Shown here: piece by piece, positions 1,201 through 51,495 of the stretch | Layout of the letters: every line of letters begins with the position of its first letter | Numbering within the stretch: position 1 is the first letter of the stretch | Source of the DNA: a virus | DNA: 64,000 nt | Reading direction: 5' to 3' (one strand) | Virus record (IMG/VR): IMGVR_UViG_3300026132_000002 | Location: 2,763-66,762 of that record | Position numbers and translations under genes: made by a program | The notes under the pieces: model-generated | What the model saw: only the letters and a program-made list of their open reading frames with translations | Databases searched by the model: none | What the model was told of the DNA's origin: nothing

Positions 1201-2229
1201 ATGCCGCATGGAAACATTCTCCATGTGGGGGACCAGCATCTTACTGATCGGGCAGAAGACGAATATCGTTGGAAGTTGTTCCCGGTCTTGAAGCAACTGA
1301 TCCACTCACAGGATATCGAAGCTATTATTTTTTATGGCGATCTGACCGACATTAAGGATCGCCATACAGGCGCTTTTATCAATCGGGTTCGCAAGAATAT
1401 TGAATGGCTTGCTACAGAAGCCAAGTTGTTCATTCTCAAAGGCAACCATGATTACAAAGATGAGAGCAGCCCCACCTTTAAGTTCTTGGATCGGCTTCCG
1501 GATATTGTATATGCTGATGTGCCGATGGTAGCAGAGATTGCGGGACGCCGTGTGTCTTTGCTGCCTTATTCTTATGATCCCGAGAACGATGAAGCATGGA
1601 CTGCGCGTCTTACGGATCGGGAAGTGGATTTTGTCTCTACTCATATTACTGTCAACCGGGTAAAGGCTTCCAATGGGCAGGAACTGCAAGGGATTCCGGC
1701 AGAGTATTTTGGTGATCTTAAAGTTTACAGTGGAGATATCCATGTGCCCCAGACAATGGGCAACGTCACCTATGTAGGCATGCCTTACCACAAGAACTTC
1801 GGAGATTCTTTTGTCCCTCGTTTCATTCTCACCACTGAGAAAGGGGACAAGAGTCTGGTAACCACCTCTGTCTTTCCTCGGCGTCATGTATTGCAGGTTT
1901 CTTCTATAGAAGAGTTGCAAAAGGTAGAAGAAGTCAAGAAAGGGGATCAAGTGAAGGTGCGCTTTTTCCTCACTCCTGAACAACTGCATGAGTGGGATAC
2001 CCTCCGCCATCAGGTAGAGCAGGTTTGTGAAGAGCATGAATGGGATCGGCATCATACGGAAGTGATCTTGAAACAGGTAGGAGTCACTTCTGAAGAGGCT
2101 CCTGAGATTGACACCCCGGATGATGCACGGGATGTATTGCACCAATTCATGGAGGAACGCTACCCCAAGATGCATCGCCTGTATTTCACGCGAGGTGTGG
2201 AAATCATTGATGCGGTGGAGGGCAAGTAA
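1201..2229 (+). CDS. sbcD: SbcD/Mre11 (gp47-like) metallophosphoesterase nuclease
   Basis: GDQH, GDLTD, GNHD, TH, SGDIH, YVG motifs; coupled to SbcC-like gene. Confidence 0.92.
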   Translation: MPHGNILHVGDQHLTDRAEDEYRWKLFPVLKQLIHSQDIEAIIFYGDLTDIKDRHTGAFINRVRKNIEWLATEAKLFILKGNHDYKDESSPTFKFLDRLPDIVYADVPMVAEIAGRRVSLLPYSYDPENDEAWTARLTDREVDFVSTHITVNRVKASNGQELQGIPAEYFGDLKVYSGDIHVPQTMGNVTYVGMPYHKNFGDSFVPRFILTTEKGDKSLVTTSVFPRRHVLQVSSIEELQKVEEVKKGDQVKVRFFLTPEQLHEWDTLRHQVEQVCEEHEWDRHHTEVILKQVGVTSEEAPEIDTPDDARDVLHQFMEERYPKMHRLYFTRGVEIIDAVEGK

Positions 2230-4118
2230 TGCAGATTTCTCTTGAAGCCATTACCCTCCATAACTTTGGCTCTTTCCAAGGGACTTCTTCTTTTATGATG
2301 CCCGCAGGTGCAGGACTGTGTGGGATTTGGGGAGAAAATCGTCTTGACCCTAAGCTTGGCTCCAATGGAGCAGGCAAGTCTACATTATGGGAGGCACTAC
2401 GCTACCTGCTTTATGGGCGTGATAGCCGGGGACGGCCTGCCACCACCCTCACGAATTGGTGGGTTGATAAGGACCCGATGTGGGTAGAAGCTACTCTTAC
2501 TATAGACGGGGTGAAGCAGGTTCTTCGGCGTAGTAGCGACCGCACCAGTGTCCTGTCATGGAAATTGGGCAATACCAAGGCTGAACAGCTTCTGGATCAG
2601 GAGAGTGTGGAAGCGCGTTTAGGCTGGAGTGGCAACCTTTTTGAGAATGCCGTGTTGCATTCACAGAGGTTTGATCACTTTCTGGATATGAAGCCGGGGG
2701 AGAAACTGGCATTTGTTTCCGAGCTTACCCATTCCAAGAATTGGGATGCCTATGCTAAGCAGGCGTTGGAGAAGAAGAACTCCACTGAAAAGAAGGTGGG
2801 TGAGATAAAGGATAAGCTTAACTATCTGCGTGGGAAAGTAGAGACACTGACGGCAGAGCTTAACAATGCCTACATCGAGAAGGATGATTGGGCCTCTAAT
2901 CTGGAACGAGAAGAAGCCGCTCTTGATGCACGAATTATTGTGCTTGAGAAAAGCTTGCAGGGCTTGTCCATCCCTACAGATTCTTCGGAGACGCGTGAAG
3001 CACTGCTGAGCAAAGTAGACAAGCTCAAGGAAGCGATTGAGGCAGCGACAATTGAGTTTGATTCTCTGCGTGAAGGCATTGCTCAACTGGATAAGCAGAT
3101 GGCCTCCAAGCAAGGTTCCCACGGCTCATTGGAACTGGACAAGAAACGTATTAGAAACCTGCGGGATAAGGACTATGAATGTCCTTTATGCGGTAACAAG
3201 GTAGACCGTGAACATCTGGATGCAGAATGGCGCAGACTTCTTTCCATCCAACGCAAGAACCGTGACGAGTATAACGCCTTGCGTGATGAGTGGGAAGAGA
3301 AATCCTCTGAAGTGCTTGCATTACAAAAGCTCCGGGAAAAGGCGAAGGACAAGTTAAATAGCGTGAGGGCATCCTTGCGCAAATTAGATGAAGAAGAGAG
3401 TGCGCGGGAGCGGGATCGGGATAAACTGCGCGCTACGCTTGAGGGCCTTTCAGAGCAGCGTAAAAGCTTACATGCTAGGAAGACCAGAAACCCGTGGGAA
3501 GATCGCGTAGGGACCCTCACAGAGAACGTCTCGGCTCTTAACAAGGAAGTGCAGGAACTCAAGCAGCAAAGAGACAGCCTAACCTCTGTACAGGCTATCT
3601 ATGAATGGTGGTCTTCCACTTTCAAGGAAGTGAAGCTGTATCTAATTCAGCGTGTCGTGAAGCAGCTTGAGATAAATGTAAACAACGCTCTATCCACCTT
3701 GGGCATGGAAGGCTACCGAATAGAGTTTGCGGTTGAAAGGGAAACCAAGAGTGGGAGTCTGTCACAGAAGTTTCACACACTGGTGCATAGCCCGCATGTA
3801 GATATGCCTGTGCCTTGGGAATCATGGAGTGGAGGCGAAGAACAGCGTCTTAAACTAGCCACCGGCTATGGTATAGTTGACGCTATCACTTCGTTGACGG
3901 GTATTCGTTGGAACATTGAAGTGTGGGATGAGCCGTCTGCCCATTTGTCAGAGACCGGGGTGCAGGATTTGCTGGCGCTTATGGAACACCGCGCCCGTAC
4001 TTCCAAGAAACAGGTTTGGACTATTGATCACAGGAGTTTAGGCGATGCTGCCTTCCTCTCATATGTCGGTATTGTCAAAGATGACAAAGGAGTTTCACAC
4101 ATCCAGTCCGTTGCGTAA
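2229..4118 (+). CDS. sbcC: SbcC/Rad50 (gp46-like) SMC-family ATPase
   Basis: TLHNFGSF, GSNGAGKST Walker A, coiled coils with CPLCG zinc hook, WSGGEEQR signature, VWDEP Walker B; TAATG coupling. Confidence 0.95.
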   Translation: MQISLEAITLHNFGSFQGTSSFMMPAGAGLCGIWGENRLDPKLGSNGAGKSTLWEALRYLLYGRDSRGRPATTLTNWWVDKDPMWVEATLTIDGVKQVLRRSSDRTSVLSWKLGNTKAEQLLDQESVEARLGWSGNLFENAVLHSQRFDHFLDMKPGEKLAFVSELTHSKNWDAYAKQALEKKNSTEKKVGEIKDKLNYLRGKVETLTAELNNAYIEKDDWASNLEREEAALDARIIVLEKSLQGLSIPTDSSETREALLSKVDKLKEAIEAATIEFDSLREGIAQLDKQMASKQGSHGSLELDKKRIRNLRDKDYECPLCGNKVDREHLDAEWRRLLSIQRKNRDEYNALRDEWEEKSSEVLALQKLREKAKDKLNSVRASLRKLDEEESARERDRDKLRATLEGLSEQRKSLHARKTRNPWEDRVGTLTENVSALNKEVQELKQQRDSLTSVQAIYEWWSSTFKEVKLYLIQRVVKQLEINVNNALSTLGMEGYRIEFAVERETKSGSLSQKFHTLVHSPHVDMPVPWESWSGGEEQRLKLATGYGIVDAITSLTGIRWNIEVWDEPSAHLSETGVQDLLALMEHRARTSKKQVWTIDHRSLGDAAFLSYVGIVKDDKGVSHIQSVA

Positions 4119-4575
4119 AATCTTGGAGTTAGTTCCTCAACTTTCTGTAGAGGATGCTCGGAAGGTAATACGCATGATTGAAATGCAGCACCCCAATGTG
4201 CTGCAGACCAAGCATATGGAGGAAGACAGCTTGCTCTTCTACCGAGTGCTGCGGCACATTATGAAAGAGCAGTATGCTCTGACATTGCCGGAGCCTCGCC
4301 TGCTGGAATCACAAGGATACTTTGCTTTATACTTGCAGGGATGGAAGAGCTTATATCTCTTCATGGATCGCTTGCAGTTTAGTGAACAGCGCAAGAAGGT
4401 TCTTTTCTTCCGGCGAGGTATTTCCTTGATGCTGCAACATTTGAAGCAGCGAGGGGTGCCGTTGACAACTTATGTAGTAATCTCGGAAATCTCCAAGATA
4501 CCGGCATTGCTGGATGCAAAATACCCGGGCTACCAGAATTTGGGTAAGGCAGGAGGGGACCTGATTACCCGTTAG
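4081..4575 (+). CDS. Hypothetical protein in replication operon
   Basis: ORF fills the gap between sbcC and helicase; start uncertain (4045 or 4081); no recognisable motif. Confidence 0.6.
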   Translation: MTKEFHTSSPLRKILELVPQLSVEDARKVIRMIEMQHPNVLQTKHMEEDSLLFYRVLRHIMKEQYALTLPEPRLLESQGYFALYLQGWKSLYLFMDRLQFSEQRKKVLFFRRGISLMLQHLKQRGVPLTTYVVISEISKIPALLDAKYPGYQNLGKAGGDLITR

Positions 4576-9049: not shown

Positions 9050-9477
9050 TGCGGTCCTCCTGACTGAAACTCCTGAGCACGTTTGATCATTTCCTCACGG
9101 AACCAGTCAGTGGCTTTCATGCACCCCACGGGTACTGTAGTGTGCTCGATCTTGGTTATCGTCTTCTGAGTGGACTTGGCAACCTTGTCAGCTTTCTTCT
9201 CAGCTACCTTGAGCTTCTTTTGCTGCTGGTAATACTGGACATTTAACTGTGCAATAGCCTTGTTCTGATCCTTGAGGGTGGCCGCCAGTTGGGTGTTCTG
9301 GGTGAACAGGTCTTTGTTCTTGTTGCGCAGATGAGAATTTTCCGAGCGTAATAACCAGATATAGAAAGCCACCCCCGCAATCGCCAAAATAATCAGGGTG
9401 GCTTTCCAGTGCTTGCGAATTAGACCAAAGAGCCCTCCACCGAATTTACCCAGAAGGCTCCACAGGATGGTCAACAT
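9046..9477 (-). CDS. Inner-membrane spanin (Rz-like)
   Basis: Start MLTILW with GAGG RBS; single TM (ATLIILAIAGVAFYIW) followed by coiled coil and a C-terminal Cys. Confidence 0.82.
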   Translation of the reverse strand: MLTILWSLLGKFGGGLFGLIRKHWKATLIILAIAGVAFYIWLLRSENSHLRNKNKDLFTQNTQLAATLKDQNKAIAQLNVQYYQQQKKLKVAEKKADKVAKSTQKTITKIEHTTVPVGCMKATDWFREEMIKRAQEFQSGGPQ

Positions 9478-40842: not shown

Positions 40843-41310
40843 TTAACTCCCGTGTGCCGCCTTGTATACGTCGCTGTCTTTTCCAACATGCACCCCATAC
40901 TTCTTGGCTGCACGAAGAATGCGCTCTGCCACAACTTTCTTGGGGTCTCCGAATTTGTGCCCATGACCACCGAAGTAACTCACTGCCGCATGAATATGCT
41001 TCTTATCAATGGGGTAGGAGTAAGGAGTGGTCCCACGATCAGCGTATTCACTGGCCTTGGTAGGGTAGCCTTTGGTGCCCGGAATCTTTTCGTCTTTCTT
41101 TTCCAAAGGAAGGAAAGTAACAGTGATTTCACCCTTCTCAACTTCTACCGGAAAGCGGGCTACAACCTGCTTATATTCGCTCTTTACAACCACTTCCTCT
41201 AAATGAGTGGCCTTATAATTGTCCTTGTACGCAAAGATAGCAACGCTATCAAACCCCGGTGCGGGGGAGACCGCGTAATTTCCTTTGCACACAACTGTAG
41301 GCTTAGTCAT
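40843..41310 (-). CDS. Head-module protein (DUF6582-like C-terminal domain)
   Basis: YSYPIDKKHIHAAVSYF...RILRAAKKYGV. Confidence 0.6.
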   Translation of the reverse strand: MTKPTVVCKGNYAVSPAPGFDSVAIFAYKDNYKATHLEEVVVKSEYKQVVARFPVEVEKGEITVTFLPLEKKDEKIPGTKGYPTKASEYADRGTTPYSYPIDKKHIHAAVSYFGGHGHKFGDPKKVVAERILRAAKKYGVHVGKDSDVYKAAHGS

Positions 41311-44293
41311 TCTCTATCCCATTGTAGTATTCTGTGGGTGAGTCATAGGAAACATTGATCTTTTCCGGATCAACAGTTCCCAAATCTTTATTCAAGAGCG
41401 AATGAAGCACATCCGCTATTTCATCAGAGTGGTCGCCATACATCCACTCAATGGGAAGAAGCGTACCAACTCCACTTGCTTTGATTCTAGCGGCCTGAGT
41501 ACCAAGGTCAAAACATACAGGCCACAAACCTGCAGCATAAGCCTCAGTCAGCGTGTACATATGTGTCTCAGGATAAGTAGACAACAAGAGTGCCAACTTG
41601 CAATTGGTCTTGTGGGCACGCTCAATCACTTCATCCATACTCTTGTAAGTGCCTGTGTCCACAAGCTTCCTGCTGCGAGGAACCTCTTCTCCGGCACTGC
41701 CAATCAGGATGAAGGTCGTAGAAGTCTTGGGAATTACCTCCGACAATAGGCGAGACCCCTTATGCGGTCCTATGGAGCCAATCAAGGCAATGTTCTTGCC
41801 TGTGGGGGCTTTAGGCTTTTCAATGTGGGTCTTATGTTGACGCACATAGATCGGCTTATCGAGCTTCAACACATCAGAAATGGGAGTAGCTGCCGCTCCA
41901 GAAGGTGCCCACAAAGTCCGTGCCCCTTCCAGCAGCTTCTTATAAGTGTTGCGATGATTCTCGATATCCACGAATCCGAACGCCGAACCCCGACCAATAC
42001 ATTTGTTGCATTCCTCCGGAGCAGGCAACCCACAATAGCGCATATCCCGATCCGGATCAGCGTCTCGATGTAAAAGGAATATCTGCGGGCAGATACTAAT
42101 GTAGTCGTGTAGCATCACATCGTAAGGAATGCCTTCCAGAGCTTCCATAAGGAAATTCGGGAAGGTATTGTCGTACCCGTATGTGGTGTGGATTTGCACG
42201 GATTCCACGCCCAAGATAGCAAGCGTTTCCTTGAACCGCTGCAAATCAGAGTACAAGGTCAGATCAAAAGGCCGGATATTATCGTATTTGCTATCCCGGG
42301 AGCACAGCACCGCTTGTCTCGCTCCTTCGTTCCTGAGAATATAAGACTTGTACCCTTCCTTTTCATAGTCCCTAGACACCTCCTTGACGTGGGTTTCCAT
42401 ACCACCCCCAAAGGTATGACTTGTGTAAAGGATCGACTTCCCCCCTTTCAGAAGTTCCAACTCTACCGCTTCCCGCAACCGGCGCATGGGGTCTTGGGTC
42501 AAGATAGAAACTATCATCTGCCGATAACGAGGGTAACGAAGAGCCATGCGCTGTTCAGCTACTTGCTGAAGTTTCTGGGCTTCTTCCCCAAAGGAAACAC
42601 TGCCAGCATGATGGACATACACGGAGCTTGTGAGCACGTGGTGGTAGCCGTGATCCAACGTCCATGAAGCCCAATCGTTTTCTTCCCCGTACCCTCGGTT
42701 GTAGCCATGTTCGTCAAAGAGACCACATTTGGCAAGCACCGAACGCGACAGGTACATACAGAACCCTACCGGAGTAGGGGTATACATGATTTCGTTCGTC
42801 TTGGAAGCGGCTTTGTCAACCTGTTCATGCGTAGCTTGTGTTGCACTACGGAAGGTACAGATTGAAGCATTGCTTCCAAGCGGGGTCACGGAAGCAATCC
42901 GCTTATTAGACTTCGCTACTTTATGCAGCCGGTCAATCCAATCCCCAAACACCTCCGTGTCACTATTCAGGGTAATCACCGGACCCGGAGTCAACTGAAT
43001 AGCATTATTCACCGACTTGGTATACCCAAGGTTCTTGTTATTCTCATGCAGGGAAACCTGCACATACCCTTCATAGGTCGGGCATTCGTTGTCCTTTACG
43101 AACTGGCGCAGCATTTCGTGCATAGCCGGTTCAGGAGACGCGTCATTGACAATAAGCAATTTAGTTTTTGCGACGTTGTGCGGAAGGGACGCGACCACTG
43201 ACTCCAGACAACGCTTGGTTGTCTCCACCCCCTTATAGCAGGGGACAATTACCGTAACGTGGCTTCTTTCCACAGGATCGATACGGTGGGGTTTTGCACC
43301 TAATACCTCCATAATCTCATCCAGATGGTCAGAGATTATGTAGTGATAACGCACATGCGCCTGAAGCTTCTTGCCTTCATTCTTAGCTTCCTTGCGGTGC
43401 ACCATATAGTGGCGAATCTGATTCAGGAAATCCTCTTCATCCTTGGCCTTGAAGACATGAGGAAAGTCCTTGTAAGGGCCGAAATCCGACGCCAGCACCG
43501 GAAACCCACAAGCCCCATATTCCTTGAGTCGAAGATCAGACTTGCAACGATTGAAGGTAGATGCCTCTAGGGGCGCTACCATCAAATCAACATCCAAGTT
43601 TGCCAGATTCTGCCCATACTGGTTGTAAGGAGTGGGCTTTATAAGCTTGACATTCGCTTCCGAAGGAAACTGGAACCCCGGATTATCGAAGATGAAATGC
43701 CACTCAACGGAATCCCCAAGTTCGCGCATGGCCGGGAAAAGGAGACGCAAGTCTCCCTCATGGGCAATACCCCCTGCAAAGCCAATACGGAACTTGCGAT
43801 CCTTGGTAGGCTCTCCCCGATTGATTAAGCACCATGAGTCCGGAAGATAATTGGGGCGCACCTTGATGGGAGTGCCCTTGACATGCGGGCGAAGCTCATC
43901 AGCGAGCGCCTGTGTGGAAACCGAGAAGGTGTCCACAGAAGAAGACAAACGCTTCAAACGCTTCAGGAAATCCTTCGGGGTTACATGGGCATGCGGACTC
44001 CACGAAGGAGTCTTGTGGACTGCATCATCCAGATCATAGACAATATGAGCACCGGCTTTCTTGTACTGCCTCAGCACTTCGATCTGGTGATCGTAATATT
44101 GGCGCTGTACTACTACAATCTCGGGGTTGAGACCTTTGAACCCTTCTTGAGTCAAGAGCTTGTTTGTTACCCGACAATTGGCGTAGCCGTGCTGATGCAA
44201 AGCCTGAGCGACGGAGTGGATGCGGTAAATTCCGCATCCTCCGTTGTCCGCGTTATGAAGAAGAATAAGCGGGGCGTAACTGATCTGTTTCAC
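41303..44293 (-). CDS. Multidomain glycosyltransferase (GT-B + GT2 + GT-B)
   Basis: N: GCGIYR, VYDLDD, IGFAGG..H..DL, APL...FNRCKS.LRL.EYG; middle: VIVPCY, NDASP, LNSDT, GYGEEND; C: GGGMETHV, LHDY..ICP, HKG, PETHMYTLTEA. Confidence 0.92.
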   Translation of the reverse strand: MKQISYAPLILLHNADNGGCGIYRIHSVAQALHQHGYANCRVTNKLLTQEGFKGLNPEIVVVQRQYYDHQIEVLRQYKKAGAHIVYDLDDAVHKTPSWSPHAHVTPKDFLKRLKRLSSSVDTFSVSTQALADELRPHVKGTPIKVRPNYLPDSWCLINRGEPTKDRKFRIGFAGGIAHEGDLRLLFPAMRELGDSVEWHFIFDNPGFQFPSEANVKLIKPTPYNQYGQNLANLDVDLMVAPLEASTFNRCKSDLRLKEYGACGFPVLASDFGPYKDFPHVFKAKDEEDFLNQIRHYMVHRKEAKNEGKKLQAHVRYHYIISDHLDEIMEVLGAKPHRIDPVERSHVTVIVPCYKGVETTKRCLESVVASLPHNVAKTKLLIVNDASPEPAMHEMLRQFVKDNECPTYEGYVQVSLHENNKNLGYTKSVNNAIQLTPGPVITLNSDTEVFGDWIDRLHKVAKSNKRIASVTPLGSNASICTFRSATQATHEQVDKAASKTNEIMYTPTPVGFCMYLSRSVLAKCGLFDEHGYNRGYGEENDWASWTLDHGYHHVLTSSVYVHHAGSVSFGEEAQKLQQVAEQRMALRYPRYRQMIVSILTQDPMRRLREAVELELLKGGKSILYTSHTFGGGMETHVKEVSRDYEKEGYKSYILRNEGARQAVLCSRDSKYDNIRPFDLTLYSDLQRFKETLAILGVESVQIHTTYGYDNTFPNFLMEALEGIPYDVMLHDYISICPQIFLLHRDADPDRDMRYCGLPAPEECNKCIGRGSAFGFVDIENHRNTYKKLLEGARTLWAPSGAAATPISDVLKLDKPIYVRQHKTHIEKPKAPTGKNIALIGSIGPHKGSRLLSEVIPKTSTTFILIGSAGEEVPRSRKLVDTGTYKSMDEVIERAHKTNCKLALLLSTYPETHMYTLTEAYAAGLWPVCFDLGTQAARIKASGVGTLLPIEWMYGDHSDEIADVLHSLLNKDLGTVDPEKINVSYDSPTEYYNGIEND

Positions 44294-44316: not shown

Positions 44317-46020
44317 TTACTGGACTTTCCCTTTTTCACGGGCGCTATCCCTGCGCGTTCCACTTGTATGACCATGATGCTCACTAGCTACAGGGTCCTG
44401 AGTAGAGTTAAAAGGGGCACCTTCCACTTTTTCCTGTTCCACACTCGTCTTGAGCAACGTGGAAACAATCGTGGCATAAAGGGAAGTAAGACCCGGGTCA
44501 ACCGGAGCCATTCCAAACAAGCGAGCTACCTGCTTCTCTTCCTCAGTAGCTCCTTTGGGCAGTGATTCTTCCCATGTCGGGAAATCCGCAGCAGAACGCC
44601 GGTCATCCACCGTCATGGCAAGACGACGAGCGTCATACTCACGGGCATCCTCCCGAGGGGATTTGCCAGAGAAGACAAATTGCAATGAAGGATAACGAGT
44701 GGAGAGAATGTAGTTGTTGATCACCGTTTCCAAGTGCTGCAGAAGCACCAGAAGACCGGGGTCATCCTGATCAATCCACTCGGGCGGCTGATCAGGCTTC
44801 TCATCCCCACGGGATGTTCCCGAAATATGATAGCCGAACCTATGAACCGGGAACTGGTAAGTAAGGCACAAAGCACCTACCAGCATATTGATCCACTCGC
44901 GGAAGAAAGCATCCTGTCCCTTGATGCGGGAAAGGTCTACAAACTCAATAGAGCCATCTGCAGGAGCACGCATGACGGGCATGATCCAACTCTTGGAAAC
45001 ACCCTTTTTCATGTTCGTCCACAAACGCTGCATTACATTCAGCACTTTCTGGGTAAAGCCACCCTTTAGTACCAGAATGCCGGGAGGGATGGTATTCTTC
45101 TTGAAGATATCAAGATTCATTTCCATCGCATCCGAGTAGCCCAGAACCAACTTCTCAGCTATCTCGATTTCCGAAAGGCCATAGCCGTAGACATCCGGGT
45201 CTAAGCGCGGATTGCGGGTGTACCATACCAACTGGTAACGAGTAAAGGTTTCCTCTACACGCTGATTGTCCCCATAAGCAACAGCGAAAATTCGCTTATT
45301 GCCTTTATAACCAGTGTCCGGGTCGGTAAGACGTATGCAACCTGCATCCAGCGGCGCAAATGTCTTTACCTTACCTTCGGTATCCGTATCCGTCCAGATA
45401 GCAATACCATCATAAGTGAGTGTGTTACGCACCAAGGCCGCGAGCATGGTGTCGAAATTCTTCAGATTGTGGTATTCACGCTCACGAATGTTGCCTTCTT
45501 CAATCGTGCCCCGAAGAATGAATTGCTCAGCTTCACGAATAAGCCTTTTGTCTTCGTTCGTGGGAGTCTTGTTAGCATCCTTCAACTCAATGCGCCAACC
45601 CGGCTTCCAGATATGCGTGGAAATACGGGAATACCGAAGCACGTCCGCCACGCGCATACCAATGATAAGCTGCGGGGCAATATGCTTCTTGACCAGTTGC
45701 TTGAGCCGACTCGGAGAGAACCCGGGCCATTCCAGAACACCATCCTGCAATGTAGGACGTACAGTTCCGGCCTGTTTTACCCCTCCTGTAAGTTCCGGCA
45801 CTTCCGGAAGTGACTTCGCCATTTCCACAGTCATGGCTGTGACATACTTCTCAAGCGTGATCGTGTCCAAAGACTTGTTGAGAATGGCCGTCTCAATATT
45901 AGTGGGAAGGCCAATACCCCCCATCTGATTGCCATGCTCGTCACGCCCGCTCTCGTCATAGCCGAAGAACGAGGAAAATACATCTTCTCCCGTGAAATCA
46001 GTAGTGTCTCGATTACTCAT
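44317..46020 (-). CDS. Portal protein
   Basis: RNTLTYD, PLDAGCIR, RNPR...YGYGLSEIE, F.KN.IPPGIL, PGL..LL; directly after terminase. Confidence 0.9.
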   Translation of the reverse strand: MSNRDTTDFTGEDVFSSFFGYDESGRDEHGNQMGGIGLPTNIETAILNKSLDTITLEKYVTAMTVEMAKSLPEVPELTGGVKQAGTVRPTLQDGVLEWPGFSPSRLKQLVKKHIAPQLIIGMRVADVLRYSRISTHIWKPGWRIELKDANKTPTNEDKRLIREAEQFILRGTIEEGNIREREYHNLKNFDTMLAALVRNTLTYDGIAIWTDTDTEGKVKTFAPLDAGCIRLTDPDTGYKGNKRIFAVAYGDNQRVEETFTRYQLVWYTRNPRLDPDVYGYGLSEIEIAEKLVLGYSDAMEMNLDIFKKNTIPPGILVLKGGFTQKVLNVMQRLWTNMKKGVSKSWIMPVMRAPADGSIEFVDLSRIKGQDAFFREWINMLVGALCLTYQFPVHRFGYHISGTSRGDEKPDQPPEWIDQDDPGLLVLLQHLETVINNYILSTRYPSLQFVFSGKSPREDAREYDARRLAMTVDDRRSAADFPTWEESLPKGATEEEKQVARLFGMAPVDPGLTSLYATIVSTLLKTSVEQEKVEGAPFNSTQDPVASEHHGHTSGTRRDSAREKGKVQ

Positions 46021-47110
46021 TCTCTTCCAGTCCCATGTAAAGTAGGGCCATTTCGTCGTCCTCTTCCGAGTCAAAGAACTCACAGGAATTGAGGGCGAAT
46101 GTAGTCATCTTGTGCATCTGACAGTATTTGCGTTCCTTGCTGAAGTAACGACAATACTCACAGCACTCACCGTAGGGGTTGGTGCTCTCCATCTTTTCCA
46201 AGGCTCCAATAGCCGCTTGAGGGGTAGAAGGAGCCTCAAATGCCGGAGTTGCTTCAATGTTATCGGGAAGGGCACCTGTATTCGCAATTCGCAAGATAGC
46301 CCAATTGACCAGATGCACGAAGGCGTCTACTTGGTCATCACGTCCACCTGTCAATCCACTGAAATTCTTCAGTTCCTGAATCATATTAGATATAGTAGGG
46401 TCCAATTCCATTTCATCGGTCCCTACTCCACGCGCAGGAAACATCACGCGCCCCTGTCGCATCCATCCCTGTGCGGACCCGGCTGACGTACCAATCAAAG
46501 CCCGTGCGCGCTTGCCAAGTTTGCTTTCAGGCACTCCCTCTACCGGCAATCCCTCCTTCTTCAGATTCTGCAGAATAGGCTCTCCACTGGCCTTCTTCTC
46601 GATAAGAATGTAGTTGGGATGCCACAAAGCAGCCTGTGCCTTGGCATATTCTTCCAGATCACCAAAGTCAAGCCGCATTACGAAGGCATCCAGAATAAGA
46701 ATGTCATAATGAAGATCAACCTTCTCTTCACTGAAATGACTACGCTCACAGGGGGCTAATAAAGCTGTAATGCAAGCTGAGGGGTCACGACGATCATCTG
46801 CACTGAAAGCCGTATCCCAACTCTGCACAATGATTTCCCCGCGTGTGGAAAGGAATTTGTGGCACGCAGAATACCCCAAGGCTCGATGAACAGGCTCTTG
46901 GTAGAAGTGGAAATCCTCTTCCAAGAAGATATCCCCCTGCAAACGACCGGGGTCACACTGATAGGTAGCTTCGGCAACTGCAGGCTGGTTGCGTTTCGCT
47001 GATAGATACTCTGATCGCTTACCCTCCTGCGTAGGCCAATAGAAAGCCCCCATCCGATATTCGGAGCATCCCCGGTCTATGCCGTAGTAGAGTTTGCGAA
47101 TACGAGCCAT
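46013..47110 (-). CDS. terL: Terminase large subunit, C-terminal nuclease half
   Basis: FYWP, YQCDP, VQSWDTA, DPSA, LIEKKASG, K.ARA, RDDQVDAF. Confidence 0.9.
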   Translation of the reverse strand: MARIRKLYYGIDRGCSEYRMGAFYWPTQEGKRSEYLSAKRNQPAVAEATYQCDPGRLQGDIFLEEDFHFYQEPVHRALGYSACHKFLSTRGEIIVQSWDTAFSADDRRDPSACITALLAPCERSHFSEEKVDLHYDILILDAFVMRLDFGDLEEYAKAQAALWHPNYILIEKKASGEPILQNLKKEGLPVEGVPESKLGKRARALIGTSAGSAQGWMRQGRVMFPARGVGTDEMELDPTISNMIQELKNFSGLTGGRDDQVDAFVHLVNWAILRIANTGALPDNIEATPAFEAPSTPQAAIGALEKMESTNPYGECCEYCRYFSKERKYCQMHKMTTFALNSCEFFDSEEDDEMALLYMGLEENE

Positions 47111-47724
47111 TAGAGCACGGAATCCATTGTCTGGTACACCAGCATAGCCAAATCATGGGGAGCCACTAACTTGGGGGTGTGGAGTTCATTTACTTCTTCA
47201 TTGACTGTGACAACATTAGCAATGGAAATATTCCCCATAGAAGCATGTGAGCAAATATTGTAAAAATCCATTGCCTGATTCATCCACAGTTTGTAGCCCT
47301 GTTCTATAGGCAGCCCGTGTTCACTATGTAAACGCAGTGAAGTGGTAGAAGGCTTAGCATAGACATAGACAAGATTGACCTGAGTCAGACCCAAAAGCAT
47401 TGCTGCAGTTACCCAAACAGGTAGGGTACGCGCCATGAGGGGGTCACAAATTCCCAGAGGCTCTGACTTGTTCAGGAGAGATAAGGTCTTCAGAGCTTTT
47501 TCTACAAACTCCTTCATCCACGGAGAAGCAGTAGACAAGGAAGCAAAGGATGACCACGACATACCAAGCTTATTGTAGATGTTGCGGTTTAGCTGCTGCA
47601 CCGGGACTGTCACATCCTTGGAAAGGGAAGGAAATGACACCCCACCCTCAATCATGGTTCCCCGGTATTTATCCAGCTTGGCTCCTGCAATCCCTGTCAG
47701 GATAAAAAGCTGTGTGTTAATCAT
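47110..47724 (-). CDS. Degenerate sulfotransferase-fold protein between the terminase halves
   Basis: QQLNRNIYNKLGMSW, GICDPLMARTLPVW (cf. KDPR..RLLP.W), YVYAKP..TSL, GYKLW; the RSGTS PAPS loop is replaced by IAGAK. Confidence 0.6.
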   Translation of the reverse strand: MINTQLFILTGIAGAKLDKYRGTMIEGGVSFPSLSKDVTVPVQQLNRNIYNKLGMSWSSFASLSTASPWMKEFVEKALKTLSLLNKSEPLGICDPLMARTLPVWVTAAMLLGLTQVNLVYVYAKPSTTSLRLHSEHGLPIEQGYKLWMNQAMDFYNICSHASMGNISIANVVTVNEEVNELHTPKLVAPHDLAMLVYQTMDSVL

Positions 47725-48637
47725 CTTCGTCCTCCGTAGTAAAGAGTTTTGAAATATCTACATCATCGGAATCCCCCAATTCAGAGAAGACACATTCCAG
47801 ATTGTCCGGAACTTGTACATCCCACCACAGGTATTTATCCGAGTCCTTGCGCTCATTGGGAAGGGTGAGCACTACCCAATCATCTTCACTGGTCTTCAAG
47901 TGGCCATACAGATCATCCAAATCCCATCGACGCCCTACCACGATGAGACGCGCACCTGCCGGGTCCTGACGACCAATCAAGTCCGAGTAATATTTGCGGA
48001 TCACCGCGTCACGCATATGCTTGGTGGAAGAGTTCTCCCACGTATGCAAGTCGTCCATGATCAAGGTAGAGCCATGCTTACCCGGCAACGTTCGTGAAGT
48101 CAGACCTGCAGCATAATAAGAGGCGTCCGGAAGACCCTTCGGGCGTCCCGTGACATAAACCCCCCGTGAAGAAGACCATCCTGCTTCCTTGTCCGGTTTG
48201 CGTGTGGGGAAGAACAGGTTGTACACGTCTGAGTCAATAAGCTCCATCGTGCCGTGAACAAAGTCTTCAGCCAGTTTTTCGGCTCCTGAAATGCACAACA
48301 CACGCTCTTTGGGGTTGTGCCCCAACAGCCACGCCGGGTAAGTAACAGAGATTAGCTGACTCTTACCACAGCCCGGGCCTACATTGATCATCAAATGCTT
48401 AATGCGAGTATCGACCAAACCCAAAATAATGGCGTACAAATGCGGGGGAAGTTCCCACTCCGGGTAGTTGGCCCGGTAAAAGGAAGCCAACCCCAGAGCG
48501 GTGCGCCCCCTGATCTGGGTTAGGAGCCTTTCTTCTTTTTCTCGTTGGTGCGCAGCGATGACATGCTCATGAAAACGGTGCTTTTCCGTTTCATCCATAG
48601 GCGCATCTGCTTCACCAAATAACCGCTTTTTCTGCAT
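47717..48637 (-). CDS. terL: Terminase large subunit, N-terminal ATPase half
   Basis: LMINVGPGCGKS Walker A, YPAW.LG.NP, LIMDDLH Walker B, VVGRRW..DDLYG. Confidence 0.92.
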   Translation of the reverse strand: MQKKRLFGEADAPMDETEKHRFHEHVIAAHQREKEERLLTQIRGRTALGLASFYRANYPEWELPPHLYAIILGLVDTRIKHLMINVGPGCGKSQLISVTYPAWLLGHNPKERVLCISGAEKLAEDFVHGTMELIDSDVYNLFFPTRKPDKEAGWSSSRGVYVTGRPKGLPDASYYAAGLTSRTLPGKHGSTLIMDDLHTWENSSTKHMRDAVIRKYYSDLIGRQDPAGARLIVVGRRWDLDDLYGHLKTSEDDWVVLTLPNERKDSDKYLWWDVQVPDNLECVFSELGDSDDVDISKLFTTEDEDD

Positions 48638-48661
48638 CCTTACTGATTGGGTGTTCTACTG

Positions 48662-48674
48662 TGGTAGAATACCA
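48662..48674. promoter_or_regulatory. Palindromic divergent extended -10 element
   Basis: TGGTAGAATACCA reads TGgTAGAAT on + and TGgTATTCT on -, in the 64-bp gap between divergent terL and lysozyme. Confidence 0.5.
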
Positions 48675-48701
48675 TGTAACCTGTACAAAAATGGTATATA
48701 A

Positions 48702-49118
48702 ATGGTCACTAACAAGATGCTTGCTTTTCTGGAAAAGCACGAAGGATTCCGCGCCCATATGTACAAGGACACACAGGGGATATGGACGATTGGCTATGGG
48801 CACAATCTGAACGAACCTATCAGTCGTGCCGCCGGTGCTGAGATACTGCGAGACGACGCTTTAGATACCGCTCAAGAGCTACAAAAAGTCGAGTGGTACA
48901 CTAAGCTGAACGAAGCACGCCAGCTTGCGATTTTTGACATGGGGTACAACATGGGTGTGGAAGAATTACTAAAGTTCCACGACATGATTGCCGCCATCAA
49001 AGCGCAAGACTGGAAGAAAGCTCACGATGAGGCGCTTGATTCGCTATGGGCAAAACAAGTTGGATATCGAGCCGAGGAAGACGCGGAGTTACTGTTGAAG
49101 GGGGAACTCCCTACGTAG
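48702..49118 (+). CDS. GH24 (T4-type) lysozyme / endolysin
   Basis: HEGFR..MYKDTQG.WTIGYGHNL catalytic E-D-T, DM.YNMG, A..E.LDS.WAKQV..RA. Confidence 0.93.
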   Translation: MVTNKMLAFLEKHEGFRAHMYKDTQGIWTIGYGHNLNEPISRAAGAEILRDDALDTAQELQKVEWYTKLNEARQLAIFDMGYNMGVEELLKFHDMIAAIKAQDWKKAHDEALDSLWAKQVGYRAEEDAELLLKGELPT

Positions 49119-49498
49119 TACAGGGGTTGTGCCCTGCCTGCTCTGTTCTTACTGCCGATTATACCTATAAGATGATTGGGGAATTGAAAAAACCCCCGAA
49201 GCTTCGGACTATGGGTGATCGGAAATGCAAAGTCAAGCAAGTCATTTCTACCCCGATTGCCGGGGTAGTCTGGAAGCTTTCAGAGTGCTGTTACTTGACC
49301 GGAGGCTTCCAAGTGCTTACCGTGAAAGGGTGGAAGAATATCAATGCCTGTGCGGGCTTACAAGCCCCTCAGGTGGGATTAAAAACCCTAGTTACTCTAG
49401 CGCCGGAACTTATCAAATTCCGAGGGATCATACTGGACTACCGGCTCAAGAAGGAAAGCCCGGTGGTGGTGGGCCAGTTACTTATTCGTCATGAATAA
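49046..49498 (+). CDS. Free-standing degenerate Hint (intein-like) domain protein; start uncertain
   Basis: GLCPACSVLTADYTYKMIGELK (block A), LTGGFQVLTVKGW (block B), GIILDYRL...VVVGQLLIRHE (blocks F/G). Confidence 0.6.
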   Translation: MGKTSWISSRGRRGVTVEGGTPYVVQGLCPACSVLTADYTYKMIGELKKPPKLRTMGDRKCKVKQVISTPIAGVVWKLSECCYLTGGFQVLTVKGWKNINACAGLQAPQVGLKTLVTLAPELIKFRGIILDYRLKKESPVVVGQLLIRHE

Positions 49499-49554
49499 GT
49501 AGGAAAGCGGTTACCACAAAAATTGACCCCTGTCAATAAAGCTCGTCAAATAAT

Positions 49555-50578: not shown

Positions 50579-50878
50579 TCAATCGTCCTCTTCTTTACGG
50601 TTAGCTCCCCAATACTGCAGAAGTTCAATACCGTGGCGCAGATGGTTCAAATGCCCTACTCGGTTTTCTGCATCGATAAGACGAGCCAGCAACATCACAT
50701 CCAAGTCTTCCAAGAGTTTGATCGTAACGCGCAAAGCTTCTTCGGTAGCCGGACCATCATTGGAAACAATGACTTCCAAACGCTCGGTAATGCGCCCAAT
50801 CTCCCCATCCGATTCCTTGGAAAGAGTTGTAGCGAGGGAACTAAGAAGATTCTTGAACTTGGCTTCTTCTTTCAGCAC
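50579..50878 (-). CDS. Hypothetical helical protein
   Basis: GGAGG RBS, GTG start overlapping the kinase stop. Confidence 0.6.
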   Translation of the reverse strand: MLKEEAKFKNLLSSLATTLSKESDGEIGRITERLEVIVSNDGPATEEALRVTIKLLEDLDVMLLARLIDAENRVGHLNHLRHGIELLQYWGANRKEEDD

Positions 50879-51495
50879 GGGATTTTTCCTCCGGGTAATG
50901 AATTAGCAGCGGTAAGGGCAGCAATCTGGGTTTTGAACTCTTCCAGAGTGCCATCATTTCTAATGGTGTCAGTGATAACCGAATCAGGAACGCCATTTTC
51001 ACTGGCATGTGCCGGTACAGGGGAAGTCTCCGGGCGCTCAATCTTAATGACCCGACCTCCCATAGTCAAAATCGCCGCAGCCTCATTAGGAAACCGCAGA
51101 TCACTGATTACCACTTTCTGGTGGCCTGCAATTCGGGCCAGTAATATATTGACCCAGATATCTTCATTGATGATATTTCGTCCCCACTCAGTACCCAATG
51201 TCTGCAAGATAATACGAGCCGAGATAACGCGTGACTGTGAAAAGGGAAACATCAAGGGAGGGTTGTAATCAGGAATCGGGTCTTCCTTGTGATCATTGGA
51301 CAGATAATAATCTGCATCCACATTCCCATATTCCAGCATAACCCGTGCCATTGCATACAGCGGTTCTGCGAAGAAGAAATGCTTATACCCCAATTCCTTC
51401 AAAACGTGCGCAGCGGTGTCTTTCCCACTGTGAGCTTTTCCGGTGAAAGCAATAATATCGGGGCTACCAAAATCCAGTGACAACTGCTCTTCCAT
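50872..51495 (-). CDS. Deoxynucleoside monophosphate kinase
   Basis: FTGKAHSGKDT, FAEPL, R.ILQTLGTEWGR, VVISDLRFPNEA, HASE. Confidence 0.92.
   Translation of the reverse strand: MEEQLSLDFGSPDIIAFTGKAHSGKDTAAHVLKELGYKHFFFAEPLYAMARVMLEYGNVDADYYLSNDHKEDPIPDYNPPLMFPFSQSRVISARIILQTLGTEWGRNIINEDIWVNILLARIAGHQKVVISDLRFPNEAAAILTMGGRVIKIERPETSPVPAHASENGVPDSVITDTIRNDGTLEEFKTQIAALTAANSLPGGKIPC

Follow-up and report, generated by a model that had tools for sequence, protein, structure and literature searches.

The large terminase (TerL) is the motor that packs DNA into the capsids of tailed phages and herpesviruses, and in the leading models the hinge between its ATPase and nuclease domains is central to the generation of force. 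Here we describe a terL gene carried as two separate open reading frames (ORFs) in IMG/VR record IMGVR_UViG_3300026132_000002, a 66,762-base record from an uncultured soil phage that is estimated to be 44% complete; we analysed a stretch of 64,000 nucleotides (nt) of this record, hereafter the window, to which all coordinates refer unless a related locus is named. The ATPase half (terL-N) and the RNase H-like nuclease half (terL-C) flank an ORF of 204 residues (the middle ORF), and the two TerL domains are thus encoded in separate ORFs, not in one polypeptide. We consider it likely that the locus arose by a real fission of terL within the inter-domain linker, with the middle ORF as a passenger. 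It is also the favoured possibility, held with rather less assurance, that the two chains form a stable two-chain motor, rather than an ATPase to which the nuclease is recruited in trans. As judged from comparison with related loci, the split is a clade-wide polymorphism.

A sequence-only reading of the window had described three minus-strand ORFs here, and all are present in the ORF list: terL-N (306 residues) at 47717–48637, the middle ORF at 47110–47724 and terL-C (365 residues) at 46013–47110. The gene-caller version of terL-N (P0001) starts at Met14 and has 293 residues. There are zero non-coding bases between the three. The terL-N stop and the start of the middle ORF share the 8-nt overlap ATGATTAA (47717–47724, minus strand), and the stop of the middle ORF and the start of terL-C overlap by 1 nt within TAATG (47108–47112, minus strand); both overlaps are seen in the sequence as that reading had them, leaving no non-coding room for an intron core. 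On the same strand, a GGAGGA ribosome-binding site at 47730–47735 stands 7 nt 5′ of the ATG of the middle ORF and, read in the terL-N frame, encodes part of the acidic tail of the ATPase half. No Shine–Dalgarno-like site was found in the string upstream of terL-C. The two halves lie in one common reading frame (48637 − 47110 = 1527 = 3 × 509), in which 12 stop codons of mixed type, the TAA of terL-N included, fall between them, and this excludes readthrough or an alternative genetic code. The in-frame codon usage of all three ORFs is typical of the genome.

Profile searches place the break precisely. terL-N matches positions 256–477 of the PHROGs profile for the terminase large subunit (phrog_38; E = 1.7e-37) and terL-C matches positions 483–707 (E = 6.2e-25); because the matches abut in one profile, the two ORFs are two halves of one TerL, and the break falls between positions 477 and 483, in the inter-domain linker where it had been proposed to lie. 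The strings on which that proposal drew are all there: VVLTLP 47 residues before the terL-N stop, FYWP and YQCDP in terL-C, the tail DSDDVD...TEDEDD and the head MARIRK. terL-C also exceeds the Pfam cut-off for Terminase_6C (28.4 bits against 22.6). Searched against the Protein Data Bank (PDB), a profile of the clade's ATPase matched structures of T7 gp19 (4bij, E = 1.5e-8; 8dgc, E = 3.2e-8), and the corresponding nuclease profile gave no match among PDB sequences.

Catalytic motifs are retained in both halves and their relatives. The GPGxGKS and DD sequences of the ATPase, which we take to be the Walker A-like and Walker B motifs, are invariant across 14 sequences, as are, across 9 sequences, the acidic residues of WDTA and DDQVDA in terL-C (D99, D259 and D262). 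Four C-terminal cysteines of terL-C are likewise invariant across those 9 sequences; whether fused or split, the nuclease ends in the motif CxxC...C...C in every one of the 24 related loci checked, as it does in the window (46013–46170, minus strand). Zinc binding is a possible role for this C-terminal arm, and we know of no such arm in the well-studied TerL proteins. The idea that it compensates for the split was rejected, as it occurs in fused and split proteins alike. PHROGs itself contains half-length families annotated as terminase large subunit, phrog_4758 (profile length 243) and phrog_5573 (250); such genes therefore occur in sequenced phages, seemingly undiscussed.

Relatives of the window's halves exist in separate and in fused form. 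A clustered protein database held 14 ATPase-only, 12 nuclease-only and 11 fused relatives with 32–58% identity to the window halves. Thirteen of the ATPase-only proteins have 236–298 residues; the remaining one, of 621 residues, carries an intein-like insert of ~347 residues at the Walker A site and has no nuclease domain. The nuclease-only relatives have 338–396 residues and the fused relatives 609–681. An alignment-based scan of viral contigs gave 11 loci, of which 8 were used (L010–L012 were dropped, at only 21–25% identity), and a scan of metagenome contigs gave 30 further loci, 8 of them duplicates or near-duplicates; when viral contigs were scanned with the ATPase half or the middle ORF as a single sequence, there was no match. 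Across the 30 non-duplicate loci and the window, terL is fused in 10, split with the halves adjacent in 9 and split around 0.4–5.9 kb of cargo in 9, the window among them; one more is a probable cargo locus, with no nuclease half within 1483 bp downstream, and two that end at a contig edge are unclassifiable. The counted rows include close variants of one lineage (L013/L014/L016, L022/L034 and L004/L019). Four more loci, from genome bins (L049–L052), comprise two fused, one adjacent and one that is not classifiable. The comparison with relatives that the sequence-only reading had suggested thus yields ten loci with an unsplit terL beside the split ones. Among cultured phages, no TerL relative above 31% identity was found, and the middle ORF gave one chance-level match only; three cultured-phage matches with two annotated features were considered as splits and rejected, being ordinary fused TerL.

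All breaks lie in one linker, between the motifs ECVF(T/S)(D/E) and (K/R)x(K/R)xxYGxDP. The ATPase-only proteins all end soon after the first of these, stop and start codons overlap in 6 of the 8 adjacent splits examined, and most split relatives have their halves in different reading frames. In the window, terL-N extends 20 residues past its last conserved motif and terL-C begins 8 residues before the conserved YG, a tail and head whose combined length comes close to that of the fused relatives' linker. In those relatives an acidic or proline-rich linker is followed by a basic (K/R)x(K/R)xxYG segment. The acidic tail and basic head that had been noted in the two halves are both present, but since fused relatives have the same pattern they are largely the two sides of the ancestral linker, not a feature specific to the split; the E-D-E-D-D at the very end of the tail is what the terL-N frame makes of the bases that serve the middle ORF as ribosome-binding site, spacer and start codon.

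A repeat search also recovered an imperfect 14-nt direct repeat at the two junctions, on the minus strand, with AAA-CTC in frame in both copies. The upstream copy, AAACTC[TT]TACTACGG (47734–47749), encodes K-L-F-T-T in the terL-N tail, and the downstream copy, AAACTCTACTACGG (47082–47095), encodes K-L-Y-Y-G in the terL-C head. The repeat is borderline significant: 6 of 2000 shuffles score at least as high, as do 11 of 913 and 14 of 913 control windows of real sequence. It looks like an insertion scar with target duplication. Such repeats were rejected as a general feature of cargo loci: none of the 8 cargo-bearing relatives tested has one.

Split terL halves appear to be maintained by purifying selection in the other split relatives. 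The ratio of non-synonymous to synonymous divergence (dN/dS) is 0.10–0.25 in all nine comparisons of half-genes from split loci, a rough estimate given that dS is saturated (1.66–2.67) in these comparisons. These ratios are those of split lineages other than the window's, which lies on a long, poorly resolved branch (1.34 changes per column) and has no close relative against which selection on its halves or its middle ORF could be gauged. A maximum-likelihood (ML) tree of the concatenated halves (30 rows and 594 columns, with the fragment L035 and the duplicate L018 left out) supports a subclade of four cargo loci (L002, L005, L008 and L031) at 97/97. The GT9 genes in the gap are orthologous in all four and the methyltransferase genes in L002, L005 and L031, at 41–60% identity, and the split and its cargo are therefore old, with an inheritance that reaches back over about as much divergence as TerL itself shows. 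How often the change of state took place can be bracketed. The ML tree requires 4 changes between fused and split (bootstrap range 3–5), and a single change is found in 0 of 200 bootstrap trees; well-supported branches alone force only 1 such change, and a single origin of the split is not rejected by an approximately unbiased (AU) test (delta lnL 20.3, p = 0.072). These sequences thus point to between 1 and about 5 fissions or re-fusions. For the state of the cargo, supported branches by themselves already demand 3 or more changes. When six fused outgroup TerLs were included, the 28 clade members formed one group (100 in the Shimodaira–Hasegawa-like approximate likelihood ratio test, SH-aLRT), with the window near its poorly resolved base.

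The middle ORF matched no Pfam, NCBIfam, PHROG or homing-endonuclease family, in agreement with the sequence-only reading that it does not look like a homing endonuclease, and PADLOC returned no match to it. Searched with phmmer against 1.84 billion proteins, it gave 13 non-self matches (E = 2.7e-6 to 8.4e-4), none above 37% identity, in which residues ~40–157 align to part of a larger protein, in its N-terminal region in 12 cases. When ten of these proteins were scanned, eight contained Sulfotransfer_3 or Sulfotransfer_1 at E ≤ 0.01, and the curated cut-off was reached in two. The ESM Atlas model of the middle ORF (predicted template-modelling score, pTM, 0.74) superposes on sulfotransferase clusters over 179–193 of its 204 residues, with template-modelling scores by query of 0.76–0.81, and the nearest Atlas clusters by language-model features contain proteins of 172–231 residues, mostly viral, several of them annotated as sulfotransferases. 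The middle ORF is predicted from these models to have a sulfotransferase fold. A profile of its family searched against PDB sequences was dominated by the coiled-coil tails of the relatives, with an aryl sulfotransferase only at E = 0.024.

Relative to this family, the middle ORF has diverged where cofactor would bind: GMHRSGTS is replaced by GIAGAKLD and KDPR by CDPL, loops that presumably correspond to the 5′-phosphosulfate-binding (5′-PSB) and 3′-phosphate-binding (3′-PB) motifs, respectively, and a conserved segment of ~14 residues is missing. Because of these replacements and this loss, its enzymatic activity is doubtful. With a GC content of 0.462 (z = −2.05) it is the lowest among 36 genes compared, and its in-frame codon log-odds (0.153, against a genome mean of 0.155; the other two frames are negative) are those of the phage, which suggests a real gene, foreign in origin and long resident. 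No homolog was detected in the 38 related loci screened (tblastn, E ≤ 1e-5). We read the ORF as a passenger gene and not as a conserved partner of the terminase; its role would be unrelated to that enzyme and is possibly glycan-related, in view of the neighbouring 996-residue glycosyltransferase and the glycan-modifying cargo of relatives; or it may be a decaying enzyme.

Across the cargo-bearing loci, the gap holds five unrelated sets of genes. The window has the 204-residue ORF, and L003 has an ORF of 108 residues that belongs to no family. L002, L005, L008 and L031 carry a GT9 heptosyltransferase-like gene, accompanied in some loci by methyltransferases and by GT34, SLOG, CxxCxxCC and DUF4214 proteins; L022, L034 and L036 carry an S-adenosylmethionine (SAM) methyltransferase and a class II ribonucleotide reductase; and L030 carries a Dam-type methyltransferase and an IS605-family TnpB. 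Opposite-strand genes make up part or all of the gap content in L002, L005, L008, L031 and L030. Homing-endonuclease families (HNH, GIY-YIG and LAGLIDADG) were not found in the gap ORFs of relatives, except for inteins inside genes. The passenger enzymes in the fission slot would be mostly carbohydrate-modifying and methyl- or sulfo-transferring.

Two resemblances between gap ORFs and window genes were pursued and rejected. The ~220-residue gap ORFs of L022, L034, L036 and L030 are methyltransferases, not homologs of the middle ORF, and the 994-residue gap ORF of L022 and L034 is a ribonucleotide reductase with an intein, not the 996-residue glycosyltransferase of the window. This class II reductase, with its LAGLIDADG intein, lies between the terL halves at 9444–12428 in L022 and 9225–12209 in L034; L036 has the same reductase without the intein. 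In L030 (803–2285), a D12 Dam-type DNA methyltransferase and then an opposite-strand IS605-family OrfB/TnpB follow directly after an ATPase-only terL-N, and a transposon-type element may have delivered the cargo at this fission site. Inteins evidently also enter terL itself within the clade. The L004 ORF at 1578–4400 has a Hint domain in its nuclease part (residues 515–811); the ATPase match is broken at query residue 93 in L034, L035, L036 and L042; and several ATPase halves carry an insert of ~1.2 kb exactly at Walker A, with LAGLIDADG in P0031.

Several routes could in principle restore a single TerL from this locus. Published interrupted terL genes are mostly of the intron type, as described for Jug phage (PMC12880540) and Twort (PMC13729910), and both window halves lie in one frame; yet it is very improbable that the middle ORF sits in a self-splicing group I or II intron, or in another spliced RNA, whose removal restores one terL messenger RNA. 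As the sequence-only reading would expect, an Rfam scan of 45500–49200 at E ≤ 10 found no intron (only five chance-level matches to small nucleolar, small and long non-coding RNAs), and at the gathering score there were 0 matches in the whole window and in 8 related loci. The ORFs overlap edge to edge without a non-coding core, and the junction RNAs have no excess structure over shuffles (z = −0.02 and −1.22). Among relatives, nine are split with overlapping or close stop and start codons and an empty gap, others have antisense genes in the gap, and the frames of the halves differ in most. Joining after translation, through trans-splicing by a split intein or as a 'fractured gene', is less probable still, to the point of being negligible. 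Fractured genes, in which split inteins flank a free-standing endonuclease gene, are known from metagenomes (PMC2677866), and inteins occur elsewhere in the clade (Hint in the L004 nuclease; LAGLIDADG inserted at Walker A in P0031 and in L034 to L036). Neither window half, however, has a Hint or intein match at E ≤ 0.1, the 20-residue tail and 8-residue head leave no room for intein halves, and the middle ORF is not an endonuclease and lies in another frame. A fused, in-frame terL, with a linker like that of the fused relatives, would also be regenerated by DNA deletion between the junction repeats, programmed or in a subpopulation, given that AAA-CTC (K-L) is in frame in both copies. This, too, we regard as a very slim prospect: the repeat is borderline (reached by 1.2–1.5% of the control windows) and absent from the eight cargo-bearing relatives, the sole DNA run shows no joint across the region, though contigs drop rare variants, and an insertion scar is the simpler account of the repeat.

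Other explanations leave the halves apart and give the insert, or the break, a different meaning. The sequence-only reading had raised the possibility that the middle protein is a stoichiometric partner; in its stronger form, the protein would be indispensable, joining TerL-N to TerL-C as a third subunit or adaptor. The tight translational coupling between the ORFs would favour joint production of the three proteins, codon usage in the middle ORF has ameliorated fully to that of the phage, and degenerate enzyme motifs would fit a structural role. Set against this, none of the 38 related loci has a homolog, the phmmer relatives are all distant, nine split relatives have an empty gap and the rest carry unrelated genes there, some on the opposite strand, and the nearest look-alikes are the short, mostly viral clusters with annotated sulfotransferases described above. 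The partner role thus found no backing among the relatives, and we judge it improbable. Similarly small is the chance that terL is decaying or defective here, as a pseudogene in a degraded or satellite element, or that the arrangement is an assembly artefact. The record covers part of the genome of its uncultured virus (44% complete) and the middle ORF lacks its family's cofactor motifs, but both halves are full-length with invariant catalytic residues, the same break is kept in many lineages under purifying selection, the head module is intact and all three ORFs show in-frame, genome-typical codon usage. Misassembly, a concern raised with the original description, is contradicted by a Logan contig from another assembler that covers 45000–49500 in one piece, with 0 differences over these 4.5 kb and no joints, although its run may be the source sample, which would make it independent only as an assembly.

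The earlier proposal of a two-chain terminase therefore stands in one part and not in another. Fission in the linker, without intron or intein, agrees with the existence of fused, ATPase-only and nuclease-only relatives, with the retained motifs and with dN far below dS; the middle protein as a partner finds no support in the comparison. Several points weigh against our reading. The matches of the ATPase half to Pfam Terminase_6N (16.7 against 22 bits) and NCBIfam termin_lrg_T7 (E = 1.3e-16; 60.5 against 150 bits), and a match to TIGR01630, fall short of the curated cut-offs; the TerL clade is divergent. To the saturated dS, the derivation of dN/dS from lineages other than the window's and the possibly shared sample of the two assemblies must be added that the sequencing runs holding the region amount to one DNA run and no RNA run. 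There is no second terL in the 66.8-kb record, but as the record is 44% complete an intact copy could lie elsewhere in the genome. Finally, according to a review (PMC3012670), T4 gp17 with an engineered split at the linker kept the ATPase and nuclease activities and lost DNA translocation completely, so that a working two-chain TerL is not a given. That split lies in the same place as the window's, at the ATPase–nuclease hinge; the split described here is natural and widespread in its clade.

We see some room, although it is the lesser possibility and on balance unlikely, for a looser arrangement in which the ATPase chain alone is the translocating ring and the nuclease chain is recruited in trans only for the initiation and termination cuts. 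The covalent link would then be dispensable and the fission site a heritable slot for passenger enzymes, and this clade would fall outside packaging models in which force has to pass through the linker.

In the two-chain motor that we favour, terL would have been cut within the flexible linker between the ATPase and nuclease domains, giving separate TerL-N and TerL-C polypeptides. These would act together without a covalent link, assembling non-covalently on the portal to package DNA. The new gene boundary within the head-assembly cluster would have become a landing site for passenger genes, of which this phage has acquired one with its own strong ribosome-binding site. The ATGATTAA and TAATG overlaps would chain the translation of the three ORFs. 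TerL-C, having no ribosome-binding site of its own, is probably made by termination–reinitiation, which would keep the two halves near equimolar.

The arrangement has partial counterparts in known systems. The herpesvirus TerL homolog UL15 lies in two exons around unrelated genes and is rejoined by host messenger RNA splicing; the window also has TerL in two pieces around an unrelated gene, and no splicing route is evident in it. T7 gp19 (PDB 4bij and 8dgc; termin_lrg_T7) is the closest solved and curated family for the ATPase half and has the same domain order, ATPase then nuclease; it is a single chain; the window's match remains below the NCBIfam cut-off (60.5 against 150 bits) and its clade has the four C-terminal cysteines. 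By analogy, the closest mechanistic parallel would be Aeromonas phage Aeh1, a 'genes in pieces' case in which an essential enzyme gene is split by an inserted gene (nrdA-a / mobE / nrdA-b) and the two chains reassemble non-covalently, with neither RNA nor protein splicing involved (PMC3045599). Both phages would have an enzyme gene in two separately translated pieces around an insert, with reassembly of the window's halves presumed, and the insertion-derived tails of the Aeh1 ribonucleotide reductase have a possible parallel in the junction repeat. They differ in the enzyme family and in the insert, which is a mobile homing endonuclease in Aeh1 and a predicted sulfotransferase-fold gene here; the new tails are essential for activity in Aeh1, whereas the window's tail and head match the ancestral linker, and no gap ORF of its relatives is endonuclease-like.

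Interrupted terL genes are on record as well. In Jug phage, group I introns interrupt terL, which RNA reads support (PMC12880540), and the Twort terminase is annotated as three coding sequences (PMC13729910). Like the window, these and the intein- or intron-interrupted genes of Twort-like and crAss-like phages have terL in at least two coding pieces with intervening ORFs. Their pieces are, in the same sources, rejoined by RNA or protein splicing, whereas the window has no detectable ribozyme or Hint domain; in its clade, moreover, the break is always in the inter-domain linker, and the gaps are empty or hold ordinary genes, some antisense. A literature search, whose coverage excluded most subscription journals and supplementary files, found no paper on intron-less fission of TerL at the linker. 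Fission with non-covalent reassembly is known elsewhere; by this analogy, what would be new here is that the protein is TerL and that the break point bears on its mechanism.

The head module around the split is intact and ordinary, comprising portal, 996-residue glycosyltransferase, prohead protease and major head protein. terL-N is the first ORF on the minus strand of this head-assembly cluster. The portal gene (44317–46083, minus strand; phrog_15361, E = 1.3e-21; phrog_12, E = 5.6e-19) is directly downstream of terL-C, and it is the next gene after terL-C in most relatives too. The glycosyltransferase (41303–44293, minus strand), with GT2 and GT1/GT4-type domains, lies between the portal and prohead protease genes and is a second passenger-like insertion within the module; taken alongside the sulfotransferase-fold ORF and the glycan-modifying genes that relatives carry as cargo, it gives a hint of glycan modification connected with the virion or the host surface. 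Upstream of terL-N, a lysozyme-like endolysin gene (48638–49118; phrog_7, E = 8.3e-21) is divergently transcribed, and a deoxynucleoside monophosphate (dNMP) kinase gene lies at 50872–51495. No small-terminase gene (terS) is present directly upstream of terL-N, the one place where it was sought. The whole 64,000-nt window has no transfer RNA genes, and scans for promoters and terminators gave counts not above those of shuffles. A weak hint of the hosts, as binning can misplace phage contigs, comes from L049–L052, three of which were binned with metagenome-assembled genomes (MAGs) of Pseudomonadota (one Alphaproteobacteria, one Acidiphilium and one unclassified) and the fourth with a Woesearchaeota MAG.

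A natural and widespread split of the TerL hinge under purifying selection would be a ready-made test of whether packaging needs a covalent linkage between ATPase and nuclease, and the clade supplies matched fused and split relatives for the comparison. Unless the halves are recognized and concatenated, such phages will be mis-scored by gene callers and in TerL-based phylogenies and completeness estimates. More broadly, the locus suggests that gene fission can open a new insertion site within an essential operon, a site that then gathers passengers.

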